Part shown: piece by piece, positions 2,124 through 6,402 of the stretch
Position numbering within the stretch: position 1 is the stretch's first letter
How the letters are laid out: the number at the start of each line of letters is the position of its first letter
NCBI GenBank assembly: GCA_963812605.1
Contig: CAWEWF010000004.1
Location: 362,143-426,142, forward strand
Length of the DNA: 64,000 nucleotides
Reading direction: 5' to 3'
From: an uncultured Verrucomicrobiae bacterium
GTDB taxonomy: Bacteria; Verrucomicrobiota; Verrucomicrobiia; Palsa-1439
The notes under the pieces: generated by a model
The model's database searches: none
Told to the model about the DNA's origin: nothing
Seen by the model: the letters and a program-made list of their open reading frames with translations, nothing else
Program-made: the position numbers and the translations under genes

Positions 2124-2468
2124 TTACCTCTTCCGTTTTGCGCGGTACTTGGCTCGTGCCTCAGCGATTGTCGTGGACGGTGCTGGCGGCAGTTCACGAA
2201 TGAACGACCAGGAGACTTCGGCGACTTCGTCGGTGTCGTAGGTGACTTTGAAATGGCTGCCCAGATCGTTGTCTACCTCTACACTCACCGGGATGGCTTT
2301 GGCGGAAATCCGGTTGGCCTTCTTGATGGCGGATTGCGGCTCAAGAAAGCAGAGGCCGTCCGCAAACTCCACTTCGAAGGCGTCTTCCCAGCCCAAATAC
2401 CGGGCCCTGCGGACGCGGGCAAAGACCGCCTGGCCGTACGGTTTCTTAAGTTGAACGTGTGTCTTCAC
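2124..2468 (-). CDS. hypothetical protein, possibly DUF2442-like antitoxin
   Basis: 114 aa with a FEVEFADG motif; GTGA-coupled to an upstream gene remnant. Confidence 0.5.
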   Translation of the reverse strand: MKTHVQLKKPYGQAVFARVRRARYLGWEDAFEVEFADGLCFLEPQSAIKKANRISAKAIPVSVEVDNDLGSHFKVTYDTDEVAEVSWSFIRELPPAPSTTIAEARAKYRAKRKR

Positions 2469-2559
2469 AGGCGACCTTCGTTTTTCAATTCCGTGATCAG
2501 CTTAATCAGTTTGTCGTCCGGCGTCCAGCAAGCACCGTGTGGCTGTGTTTTAAAATTTG

Positions 2560-3036
2560 GCCGGCGGGCGTTGGGGTGGGTGAGATGCTCCAAGCGGTTG
2601 TGCTCGGCCACGCGCAGCGCCAGGACTTGTTGGCGACGGGTGACCAACTCCGCCAGTTGACTCTGGGCGGCGCTCAACGCGGCGGTGCCGGCCGGGTGTA
2701 CGGCGGCGCCGTAAGCCGCCAGCACGGCGGCATCCAGTTGGTCAGTCTTGGCCAGCCGACCGGTGGCGCGGGCGAAGTCGCGCACGTGACGCGCGTTGAC
2801 TACCGAAACCACTACACCGGCGCGTGCAGGGCGGCCACGACGGCGCGTTCATAGCCGCCTGTGGCTTCGCCGATGACGTGCACGGATCCCAGAGCTTGCA
2901 GCCAACGCACCAAGGCGCGGTGGCCCTGAGGGTGGTTGGGAAACTGACGGAACTGCGCGCGGGATCCGCTGGCGGCGTGCAGATCCAGGGTGAGTTTGGC
3001 GACATCCATTCCGACGTAGACGATCGATGGCAACAT
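2560..3036 (-). pseudogene. IS110 recombinase N-terminal RuvC-like (DEDD) domain, truncated, frameshift near 2815
   Basis: YVGMDVAK, EATGGYE, VNARHVRDFARATGRLAKTDQLDA; no C-terminal Tnp domain. Confidence 0.88.
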
Positions 3037-3265
3037 GGTTAGACTCCTCCTTGCAATGCGAGCTGGTGGTGGCGCGGATGGGCGCGACCGCCGCTCTGGC
3101 AACTGTTCGAGCGTACCGACAGGCAACGCGGATGGATCCAGCTCCAAACGGACAGGTCTGAACCGAACCGAGGGCCACGACGATCACTTCCGCGCGCCCT
3201 TGGGGGGCATGCCCCCCAAGGGCCATCCTGTCGCTCCCACACGGTGGGAAACCAAGCCAGAGAGT
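3037..3265 (-). ncRNA. IS110 bridge RNA (predicted)
   Basis: TAGAAT -10 at 3273-3278; 28-bp perfect palindrome 3196-3223; guide-like CGTGGCCCT, TTGGAG, ACAGTTG and TTGCAAG in the IS621 order. Confidence 0.75.
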
Positions 3266-3284
3266 ACCAAAAATTCTAGATACA

Positions 3285-3346
3285 AGGGCCACGCTCCGTC
3301 GCGTCGCGTTCATTCAATGCGGCCACGACGGAGCGTGTCCCTCCAA
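3285..3346. repeat. inverted pair of REP-like elements; the left copy is the IS110 target
   Basis: GACGGAGCGTGGCCCT on the minus strand (cut at CT) and GACGGAGCGTGTCCCTCCAA on the plus strand at 3327-3346. Confidence 0.7.
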
Positions 3347-3415
3347 GCCGCAGATCAGGACGTTACCCACCGTATTGTAATAATCCCGAGGCGGGACACC
3401 ACGAGGAAGACCGGA

Positions 3416-4530
3416 CTACAGCGTCCGGCGAAACAGCAGCGTGGCGGCGGTCATGGCCAGGACGGTGAAAACCAACAGAAAAAGCAGGTCGCCGCTGACG
3501 GCCACAAGCCGGTGTTTTTCAAGACGAAGCTGTTTGAACCCGTGCACGGCGTAGGTGAACGGGTCGACGACCGCGATGGCTTTCATCCAGGCCGGAAAGG
3601 ATTGCGTGGGATAGACCGCGCCGCTGGGGAAATACAACACCGTGTTCAACATCCCGAAAATGGCGCGCGGCACCAGCGGGTCGCTCACGCGCACCATGAT
3701 CAGAAACATCATGCTGATCAGCGCCAGCGCCGTCGCCACCACCAGCAACAGCATCTTCGCCAGTCGCAGCGGGATTCAACGGATCGGGAATTCCCGCGAT
3801 GAGCGAGCCGAGAGTGATCAAAACCACCCCGGCGATGATGGCCTTGGCCGCGCCGGCGAGCGTGAAACCCAGAATCAATTCAAATTTGCGGATCGGCGTG
3901 ACGAGATAGCCCTCGTGCAGGCCGCGCGCCTTGTCGTCGATGAAAATGATGCCGCCGCCGATCATGGCCGAAACAAAGATCGCCAGCACGATCGTGCCGG
4001 GCAGCAGGTACTGGATGTAAGGCACGTACGGATAAATCTCCACGACGGAGAGCGTCGCCGCCGCGGTCGTGCGCGGCGGAACGGCGGGTCCATTGTAGGG
4101 CGCAAGCATGCCATTGAGGCTGCCTTCGAGCGCGGACGCGGAGAATTGTCGGTGTTGTCTTCGACCAGCGCGATGCGCGGATTCGCTCCGGCGAGGACCT
4201 TGCGCGAAAACTCCGGCGGAATGTCAGCACGCCGTTGATTTTGCCGTTGCGCAGATCGCGCAGCGCGGCCGCCTTGGTCGCTGTAAGCAATCGGTGTCGA
4301 AGGTGCGCGCGTTGGCGGCGACGGCCTGGCACATTTCCTTCAGTTTGATCGCCGGCACGCCGTGGTCCTGGTCGACGACGCCGACTTTCAGGTGCTTGAC
4401 GTTGCCGCCGAACGCGTAGCCCGAGCACGACCAGCTGCACCAGCGGCATGACGATGGAGACGATGACCAGAACCGGGCTGCGCCGGAACCGGCGCAGGTC
4501 GCGTTCGATGATGGCCCAGATGCGGTGCAT
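3416..4530 (-). CDS. ABC-2 type permease (several frameshifts)
   Basis: MHRIWAIIERDLRRF...YLLPG...VDPFTYAVHG spread over several frames. Confidence 0.85.
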
Positions 4531-4544
4531 ATCGTCTTGTCCTC

Positions 4545-5535
4545 TTATCCTCGCTGCATCAGAAACGGGCTGTTGGCAGCCGCCGGGCGCCTGCAACGCG
4601 TCGCGCAGTTGATGGCCGGTGTAATGCACGAACACGTCGTCGAGCGTCGTGCTCTGCACCGAAAGCGAAGTCACCGTGACGTTCGCGTTGCGCGCCGCTT
4701 CCATCAATGCCACCGTCGTGCGCGGGCCGTTGTTCGACGAAATCCGGAAGATGTTGTCCTCCGCCTTCACTTCGGCCACGTCGGGCAGGTGTTTTCACGT
4801 CTCCAGCCAGTGTTGCGGACGTTCGAGAAACTGACCTCCAGAATGTTCTTGCCGGGAATCGAGGCCTTCAATTTCAGCGGCGAATCCAGCGCCACCAGTT
4901 TTCCGTGATCCACGATCGCGATGCGGTCGCAGAGCTTGTCGGCTTCGTCCATGTAATGCGTGGTGACGAGGATCGTCAGGTCGCGCTCGCGTTTCAGCCG
5001 CGAGAGCATCTCCCAGACCGCGACGCGCGAAACGGGGTCGAGGCCGGTGGTCGGCTCATCGAGGAAGAAAAGCTTGGGCTCATGCACCAGGCCGCGCGCG
5101 ATTTCCAGCCGGCGCCGCATTCCGCCGGAAAACATTTTCACCGGCTTGTCCGCCCATTGTTCAGGTCCACTGCCTTCAGCAACTGGTCGGATGGTGCGCA
5201 GCCGCTTTTCGCGCGGAATGCCGTAGAGCTTGGCGAAGATGCTCATGTTCTCCTCCGCGCTCAGATCGAGATCGGACGTCATCGCCTGCGGAATGACGCC
5301 GATGGACTGGCGCACGTCGTTGGCCTGCGCGGACGATGTCGAAGCCGTTGACGCGCGCCGTGCCGGAAGTCGGCGGCACCAGCGTCGTCAACATGCGGAT
5401 GAGCGTGGATTTGCCCGCGCCGTTTGGCCCGAGCAGACCGAACACCTCGCCGTGCTCGACGGAGAAGTTCAGCGCGTCCACGGCCGTAAAATCGCCGAAG
5501 CGCTTGGTCAAATTTTCAACGTCGATGTCAGCCAT
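4545..5535 (-). CDS. ABC transporter ATPase, DrrA-like (frameshifted)
   Basis: [27 protein letters not shown]. Confidence 0.9.
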
Positions 5536-5539
5536 GGCC

Positions 5540-6402
5540 TCACGGGCCTTTCAACGGCAACGTAACGTAAGCGGTCATGCCGACCGCGAGGCGCGGTCGC
5601 GGTTGTCACAGCGCAGGCGGATTTCAAACGTCTTGATGTCGCGCTTGGTGCGGCTCACGTCGCGTTGCGTGGCGTAATCCGCGTCCACGCCGCGATAGAA
5701 CACCGTGCCTTCGCGCACTGCGCCGGAAGGCAGTCTCACCGGCAATTTGTCGCCGAGACGAATGCGGTCGATGTACGTCTCCTCGACGTCGGCGCGCACC
5801 CAGAGATCGTCCGGGTTGATCAGGGTGACGATCGCCTGGCCGGGATTCACGACTTCGCCCTGCAGCGCCGCGCGCGTGTCCACGATGCCGTCGATCGGCG
5901 CGAGAATCCGGGTGTAACCCAGTTGCACCGTCGCCTTCGTGCTCTGGGCGCCCGCCGCTTGGGTTTGTTTGTTGACGGATTCGACCCGTGCTTTCGCGGC
6001 GTCGTAAGCCGTTCGCGCCTGATCGTAAGCCTGGGCGGACTCGGCGCCCTGGCGGTATAAGGCCTCCTCGCGCTGATAGGTCAGGCGGGCATTTTCCAGA
6101 TCGGCTTTTGCCTGCGTAATCTGCGCGGCGTACTGTTGTTCACTGCTCGCGTAAAACGCAACGTCAGCCTGCTGTTCCTGGGGTTGGATGACGCCGAGCA
6201 ATTCGCCATTGGTGACCACGTCGCCTTCTTTGACGAAGAGTTGCTGCAAACGGCCCTGGATTTCAGGGCCAACAATCACCTCATCCGTCGTCACAATGCC
6301 GGTCAAAACGATTGCGACAGGTGGCCGGGTGCTGGCGTAATAAATGACAGCCGCGACAACGGCGAGAATCACGATTAAAACAAGGATTTTGGGTTTGTTC
6401 AT
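5540..6402 (-). CDS. HlyD-family efflux adaptor (frameshift near the 3' end)
   Basis: N-terminal anchor, VKEGDVV lipoyl-like halves, APIDG; likely true end [13 protein letters not shown]. Confidence 0.88.

Follow-up and report, generated by a model that had tools for sequence, protein, structure and literature searches.

The non-coding stretch at 3037–3346 of the window (the whole 64,000-nt stretch of DNA analysed here) raises the question of whether it encodes a bridge RNA, and whether the guides of that RNA can be read against the target of its own element, as a first-pass annotation had proposed. We find that window 2559–3286 (minus strand) is very probably the truncated remnant of an insertion sequence from the IS110 family, of IS621 type and 1205 bp in full length, and that it carries the bridge RNA of this element. 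The left end of this element is present five times in the 4.17-Mb assembly, in four full copies and in the window copy. The full copies, whose length of 1205 bp counts both CT cores, are 99.6–99.8% identical to the C14 copy, and a five-copy repeat at >99% identity suggests a recent spread. The left end of the element is a non-coding segment of 250 nt upstream of the ATG (3034–3036 in the window, minus strand), and the right end comprises only 11 nt after the stop codon. A 313-aa frame is open in three full copies; the fourth full copy and the window copy contain single-base indels. The window copy corresponds to nt 1–728 of the element, and its likeness to the full copies, compared over their full length, stops at approximately window 2559.

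The full-length protein has the domains PF01548 (DEDD_Tnp_IS110, 1.7e-24) and PF02371 (Transposase_20, 4.6e-15). The gene remnant in the window (2559–3036, minus strand) retains only the N-terminal DEDD domain, with PF01548 matched in two pieces (2812–3036 and 2465–2812), and is missing the C-terminal domain with the catalytic serine. In a phmmer search, residues 5–300 aligned with the IS621 transposase (8wt6) at E 3.9e-39, and the ISCro4 transposase aligned at E 1.6e-38. Residues D11, E57, D99, D102, and S238 align with D11, E60, D102, D105, and S241, which are the catalytic residues listed for IS621 (PMC11208158); the numbering of the deposited 8wt6 chain is two higher than this list. The Pfam domains, the phmmer match, and the aligned D/E/D/D/S positions bear out the initial assignment to the IS621 type. 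Judged by sequence, the closest relatives of the element are in Verrucomicrobiae genomes.

The bridge RNA is read from the minus strand, and all features in this paragraph are on that strand. It begins with two 5′ hairpins (3196–3248), which include a 12-bp G+C-rich hairpin at 3196–3224. The target-binding loop module (3127–3195) follows and is closed by a basal stem formed by 3182–3195 with 3127–3139. It contains the left target guide CGUGGCCCU (3171–3179), which is identical to the left flank and core at 9/9 positions, an inner stem-loop (3149–3170), and the right target guide UUGGAG (3142–3147), which is the complement of CT-CCAA. The next two nucleotides, CU (3140–3141), form the handshake dinucleotide of the target loop, in which C pairs with donor position 7 (G). 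The donor-binding loop module (3043–3112) has a stem of GCUC (3109–3112) with GAGU (3043–3046). Its left donor guide ACAGUUGC (3099–3106) equals the right end of the element plus the C of the core, and an inner stem-loop (3060–3096) separates it from the right donor guide AUUGCAAG (3050–3057), in which AU and CAAG complement CTTG.AT with UG between them. The handshake dinucleotide of the donor loop is GA (3048–3049), in which G pairs with target position 7 (C). These handshake pairings of the window element were read by eye. A Shine-Dalgarno-like run, GGAGGAG (3044–3050), precedes the start codon and overlaps three parts of the donor loop, namely the tail of its right guide, its handshake dinucleotide, and its stem on the 3′ strand. 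The motifs from which the first-pass annotation had built its reading are all in place on this strand: the flank CGTGGCC (3287–3293), the CT core of the left junction (3285–3286), TGTAT (3280–3284), which is the right donor half and forms the first bases of the element, the −10-like hexamer TAGAAT (3273–3278), the second 9-mer CGTGGCCCT at 3171–3179, TTGGAG at 3142–3147, and the donor-guide-like ACAGTTG and TTGCAAG within 3099–3106 and 3050–3057, respectively.

The junctions in the genome agree with these guides. All five left junctions read CGTGGCC-CT-TGTAT (...ACGACGGAGCGTGGCC|CT|TGTATCTAGAAT), so that the left target guide matches left flank and core at 9/9 nt in 5/5 cases. The right ends of the full copies read ACAGTTG-CT in 4/4 cases (...GAAAAGACAGTTG|CT|), as had been predicted from the truncated copy, and the left donor guide ACAGUUGC equals this right end plus C in all four. 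The target predicted for the element was CGTGGCC-CT-CCAA, and the full copies do occupy it rather than unrelated sites; their right flanks are CCAA (two copies), CCGA (one), and CCAG (one). The right target guide therefore matches core and right flank at 6/6 positions in two copies and at 5/6 in the other two. CT is present at both junctions of all four full copies, without any other target duplication. Within the window alone, the repetition of the 9-mer is not significant, with two matches against 0.63 expected and at least two in 12/100 shuffles. Its weight comes from position and replication, because the 9-mer is carried by all five left junctions and, in other genomes, the homologous positions agree with the flanks found there.

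The target sits in an imperfect, low-copy palindrome, where it forms the foot of the right arm. In the window, the right arm CGACGGAGCGTGGCC occupies 3287–3301 (minus strand), and its last 7 nt (3287–3293) are the left target half CGTGGCC; the REP-like left arm TTGGAGGGACACGCTCCGTCG is at 3326–3346. An intact sister REP had been described about 40 bp away. The sequence is indeed there, since the plus strand at 3334–3346 (CGTGTCCCTCCAA) reads CGTGTCC-CT-CCAA, with one mismatch to the left target guide, and forms a near-cognate, unoccupied, inverted site; it is the opposite arm of the same palindrome, however, and not a separate REP. The proposal of REP targeting likewise holds for insertion into a repeated palindrome but not for a high-copy REP family: a census with 20-mers at ≤3 mismatches gave 18 right-arm-like and 13 left-arm-like matches in 4.17 Mb, a copy number by which we class the repeat as a low-copy palindrome. 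An earlier census with a 10-mer at one mismatch gave 706 matches, mostly spurious, and was replaced by that with 20-mers. The left arm usually reads CGCGTCC-CT-CC on the other strand, which departs from the guide at two positions. This difference fits the observation that the five insertions share one orientation and are all in the right arm.

The sequence CGTGGCCCTCC is found at 15 further, unoccupied places in the genome, of which 10 are within the right arm of the target palindrome and 5 are followed by CCAA. Four of the 15 are outside the palindrome (C8 ~184828, C10 ~188060, C6 ~287922, and C12 ~35132). These four, none of them occupied, belong to one or two other repeats (...GCTCAGGACAGGCTCCGC... 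upstream; ...AATGAGGAAGAAGC downstream). At C14 ~766142 (minus strand) of the same genome, one short-read contig of 152 nt runs from 122 nt of flank into the beginning of the element's left end. In the assembly, this flank belongs to an empty non-palindrome site, ...ACGCAGCC-CT-CCAG, which has two differences from the left target guide, each of them compatible with wobble pairing (U.G and G.T). The contig has 30 letters on the element side, below the bridging threshold of 31, and we regard it as a lead for a polymorphic sixth insertion and not as a finding.

How the RNA might be expressed was considered from the sequence of the junctions. A promoter and terminator scan of 2950–3450 gave nothing, and a promoter-like site is absent from all five integrated junctions. 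When the right and left ends were joined in silico, a sigma-70-like site appeared (ATGAAA-17 nt-TAGAAT, 9/12), to which TAGAAT belongs only when the right end is joined; its assignment as a −10 hexamer is plausible. The in silico site agrees with the junction promoter described for the circles of IS110 elements (PMC11208160), and weak expression has been reported for integrated IS621 loci (PMC13626964). In contigs of four soil-metagenome runs from one study, compared with a full copy, no joints, circle junction, or empty site were found; the contigs break at the ends of the element.

The chances are about even that the window copy itself is an inert fossil whose locus makes no functional RNA, a possibility that would leave the reading of the family standing and that qualifies our explanation without excluding it. 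The copy breaks off at element nt 728 with no orphan right end anywhere in the assembly, it has a 1-nt deletion near 2821 in the DEDD domain, and its integrated junction is one of those without a promoter-like site. However, the RNA of the window copy has kept its four guides and every helix intact, and it is identical to that of the full copies except for two single-base length differences in the 5′ hairpins. One private variant is a G missing from the first hairpin (element nt 45). Read-through transcription is possible, as the ABC-2 permease gene on the same strand ends at 3416, approximately 130 nt upstream of the element. Since the IS621 bridge RNA is described as acting in trans (PMC11208160), RNA from the window copy could also serve the four intact copies. 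Furthermore, this assembly is rich in single-base indels, which may be errors. Upstream of the element, the genes for the ABC-2 permease and an ABC ATPase (3416–5535) are divided among overlapping frames, and a HlyD-type membrane-fusion gene (5575–6402) follows them. The split ABC frames and the indels of the element together point to homopolymer-type assembly errors rather than real pseudogenes, and because the neighbouring transporter genes are also broken by frameshifts, some of the indels in the element may be such errors. Without a right end and a catalytic C-terminal domain, the window copy cannot move itself, and it is a non-autonomous remnant with an intact RNA-coding end.

It is improbable that the truncation is an artefact of assembly in which a full copy was mis-joined to unrelated low-G+C DNA while the real locus is complete. 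Repeats such as this one, with five copies at this level of identity, are places where an assembly may break or mis-join, single-base indels are many, and G+C content drops from 0.65–0.69 to 0.45–0.56 across the break. The break is nevertheless inside the element rather than at an end, assembly passed through the four other copies, and short-read contigs gave no joints, in a comparison confined to a full copy. The low-G+C stretch past the break (870–2560) looks like foreign DNA abutting the truncated element. It contains, on the minus strand, a 114-aa ORF with no Pfam match (2124–2468), a gene for a 285-aa protein with MUG113/T5orf172 domains (1251–2108), and a 115-aa ORF (870–1217). A pair of genes for a VapB antitoxin (130–372) and a PIN-domain VapC (354–746) is on the plus strand.

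The guide reading extends to orthologues in other genomes, in which the guide positions change together with the flanks. In close relatives, the corresponding alignment columns read UCCAGCCCU beside the flank TCCAGCC-CT and UUUGUAG beside CT-ACAAA. In another group, AGUCGCCCU stands next to AGCCGCC-CT, from which it has one U.G-compatible change, and UUGGUAG next to CT-ACCAA. The right flank was readable in 22/25 loci, and the match was perfect over 5 nt in 17 of these 22. Across 28 orthologues, the 5 nt that follow the right core agreed with the complemented right target guide at 4.14/5 positions on average, with 15 perfect matches; permuted guide-flank pairs gave 1.35/5 and no perfect match in 744. 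The 28 orthologues are the 33 matches of the covariance model described below minus five dropped rows, in which the right end was not found (the window, L046, and L048) or the guide end was not recognisable (L056 and L089). On the left side, the guide matches its own flank at 9/9 positions in L011 and L012 and at 8/9 in the L017 group, with a wobble-compatible change. L032 and L033 have one non-wobble mismatch, and in L013 and L014, with unrelated left flanks, the left target guide is unmatched. A longest-common-substring test of the 5′ loop strand against the upstream flank overlapped its null (≥7 reached by 16/28 pairs vs 116/748 permuted) and on the window chose the second GTCGTGGCC in the palindrome and not the junction. 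It was too noisy, and the right-flank test was used instead.

The handshake nucleotide of the target loop is complementary to donor position 7 in 29/30 orthologues (three rows dropped), including three cases with both sides changed, from C:G to U:A. Among the records L011–L035, from Verrucomicrobiae genomes, one related genome has at least 17 copies of its orthologue. This genome has two classes of left flank, ...AGCCGCC and ...A(A/C)GCGCC, beside one guide, AGUCGCC, which suggests either tolerated mismatches or two target repeats.

Comparison of left ends also gave a common fold. RNAalifold was run on nine left ends, namely the window, one copy from the same genome, and seven relatives at 59–74% protein identity. 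In the consensus, both target guides are unpaired and form the two sides of one internal loop between a basal stem and an inner stem-loop, and a second module contains the donor guides in its own loop. The guides thus fall in internal loops of the fold and not outside them. Compensatory changes were seen in 13/53 pairs. We built a covariance model (R1) of a 159-column core with IS621-like structure and searched 47 sources, drawn from 89 loci and the window, at E up to 1; the loci of the genome itself (L001–L010) and most extra copies from genomes already represented were outside this search. The model matched 33/47 sources, among them 26/40 non-seed loci, and every match was just upstream of the transposase match. 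On the model alignment, 97.2% of 746 cells are standard pairs, compared with 33–48% when the partners are slid by 1–3 columns; 25/28 pairs change on both sides, and 0/500 shuffles reach any of these measures. These figures are to be read with the model in mind, because fitting the alignment to it favours the structure.

When the 159-nt core was folded as a single sequence, the consensus fold was not recovered, and the stability did not exceed that of shuffles (z +0.65). Enforcing the consensus pairs gave −54.9 kcal/mol, which is 2.3 kcal/mol above the unconstrained minimum of −57.2 kcal/mol, and the whole left end has a folding z of −2.27. A scan of 2400–3600 with Rfam 15 at E up to 1 gave no match to a bridge RNA, a family that Rfam may not contain, and just three sub-threshold matches to miRNA families, on the palindrome hairpin. 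It is extremely improbable that the internal 9-mer and 6-mer are instead protein-binding subterminal repeats or chance matches and that the protein chooses the target: although the repeat does not reach significance in the window alone, the guide positions vary in step with the flanks across orthologues while compensatory changes keep the surrounding helices, one guide reads as the flank does and the other is complementary to it, which is the strand rule of IS621 and unlike a repeated protein site, and the protein is a clear IS621 homologue.

We propose a mechanism for the family based on features that the sequences show, namely the anatomy, the junctions, the guide-flank matches, the covarying fold, and the conserved catalytic residues. 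Transcription, circle formation, and the recombination chemistry itself are what we infer from there. CGUGGCCCU is the top strand of the left target half and core and would pair with the bottom strand, and UUGGAG would pair with the top strand across the core and right target half, CT-CCAA, to which it is complementary. On the donor side, ACAGUUGC corresponds to the right end of the element plus the C of the core, and AU..CAAG is complementary to the core and left end, CTTG.AT. Homology with IS621 suggests that a tetramer of the recombinase, loaded with the RNA, would bring the circular element (junction ACAGTTG-CT-TGTAT) to its target, CGTGGCC-CT-CCAA. Strand exchange would then occur at the CT core, aided by the handshake nucleotides: the C after the right target guide and the G after the right donor guide, each complementary to position 7 of the other DNA.

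In the compact clade to which the element belongs, the bridge RNA may possibly also serve the mRNA for the recombinase as its 5′ untranslated region, an idea that we put forward as unlikely but worth stating. In the invariant run CAAGGAGGAGUCUAACC-AUG, the Shine-Dalgarno sequence, 13 nt ahead of the start codon, takes in the final part of the right donor guide together with the handshake dinucleotide and the donor stem's 3′ strand. If the idea is correct, the recombinase's own translation would be shut off when the donor loop folds or when the recombinase binds to it. More distant orthologues have a separate Shine-Dalgarno sequence further downstream. In the literature searched, we found no discussion of an overlap between donor loop and Shine-Dalgarno sequence, or of such autoregulation, in IS110 bridge RNAs.

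The element described here provides a natural bridge RNA for which genome sequence alone allows the four guides and the handshake nucleotides to be read and cross-checked, along with target and donor. Its lineage, Verrucomicrobiae-like soil bacteria, is far from E. coli, and it is unusually compact: the element measures 1205 bp, the recombinase has 313 aa, and the right end comprises 11 nt. It also illustrates cleanly, in a natural case, how two guide positions set the orientation of insertion when one arm of a palindrome is targeted. Such orthologues are raw material for the engineering of bridge recombinases. The new specificity claimed at the outset is real and, for the IS110 family, ordinary. 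Thousands of orthologues have been predicted (PMC11208160).

The closest well-described system is IS621 of E. coli, reported by Durrant et al. 2024 (PMC11208160) and Hiraizumi et al. 2024 (PMC11208158), with which the element shares an RNA in the left end with target- and donor-binding internal loops. The geometry reported there also recurs, with a 9-nt left target guide, an 8-nt left donor guide, a discontiguous right donor guide, and 2-nt handshake guides. In IS621, the left donor guide is given as 8 nt, the right donor guide is described as AU and then CAAG with a flipped-out U and a G.T pair between them, and the 2 nt after each right guide are described as handshake guides for positions 6–7 of the other DNA (PMC11208160, PMC11208158). 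Both elements have a CT core, a left end starting with TGTAT (donor positions 8–14 of IS621 are CTTGTAT; PMC11208158), a recombinase with DEDD and Ser residues, and insertion into palindromes, which are extragenic for IS621 and presumably so here. The differences are in sequence and spacing. The IS621 target is ATCAGGC-CT-AC (PMC11208160), in contrast to CGTGGCC-CT-CCAA here, the right target guide has 6 nt here and 4 nt in IS621, and the gap in the right donor guide is 2 nt here and 3 nt in IS621.

The right end of the element begins with ACAGT, as does that of IS621, which reads ACAGTAT. Unlike IS621, the family of the window element has a right end of only 11 nt after the stop codon and a length of 1205 bp, the window element has two 5′ hairpins in its RNA, and, as a probable further difference, its donor-loop stem overlaps the Shine-Dalgarno run. 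The proteins are distant homologues (E 3.9e-39), and the host lineage is Verrucomicrobiae-like here and enterobacterial for IS621. In the IS1111 group, which belongs to the same protein superfamily and follows the same two-loop logic, the guide RNA (seekRNA) is in the right end of the element. The RNA of the window element is, in contrast, upstream of the gene, and a right end of 11 nt cannot contain an RNA. ISPpu10 of Pseudomonas putida is another IS110 element, for which all insertions are reported in copies of one conserved intergenic sequence (bioRxiv 10.64898/2026.03.19.712850). A G+C-rich stem-loop is described 5′ of the ISPpu10 target, and the target of the window element is the 3′ foot of a palindrome; unlike the situation in ISPpu10, 4/15 empty CGTGGCCCTCC sites are outside the palindrome. 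Bridge-RNA systems have been known since 2024, and the window element leaves the known mechanism unchanged while adding another orthologue with its own target specificity.
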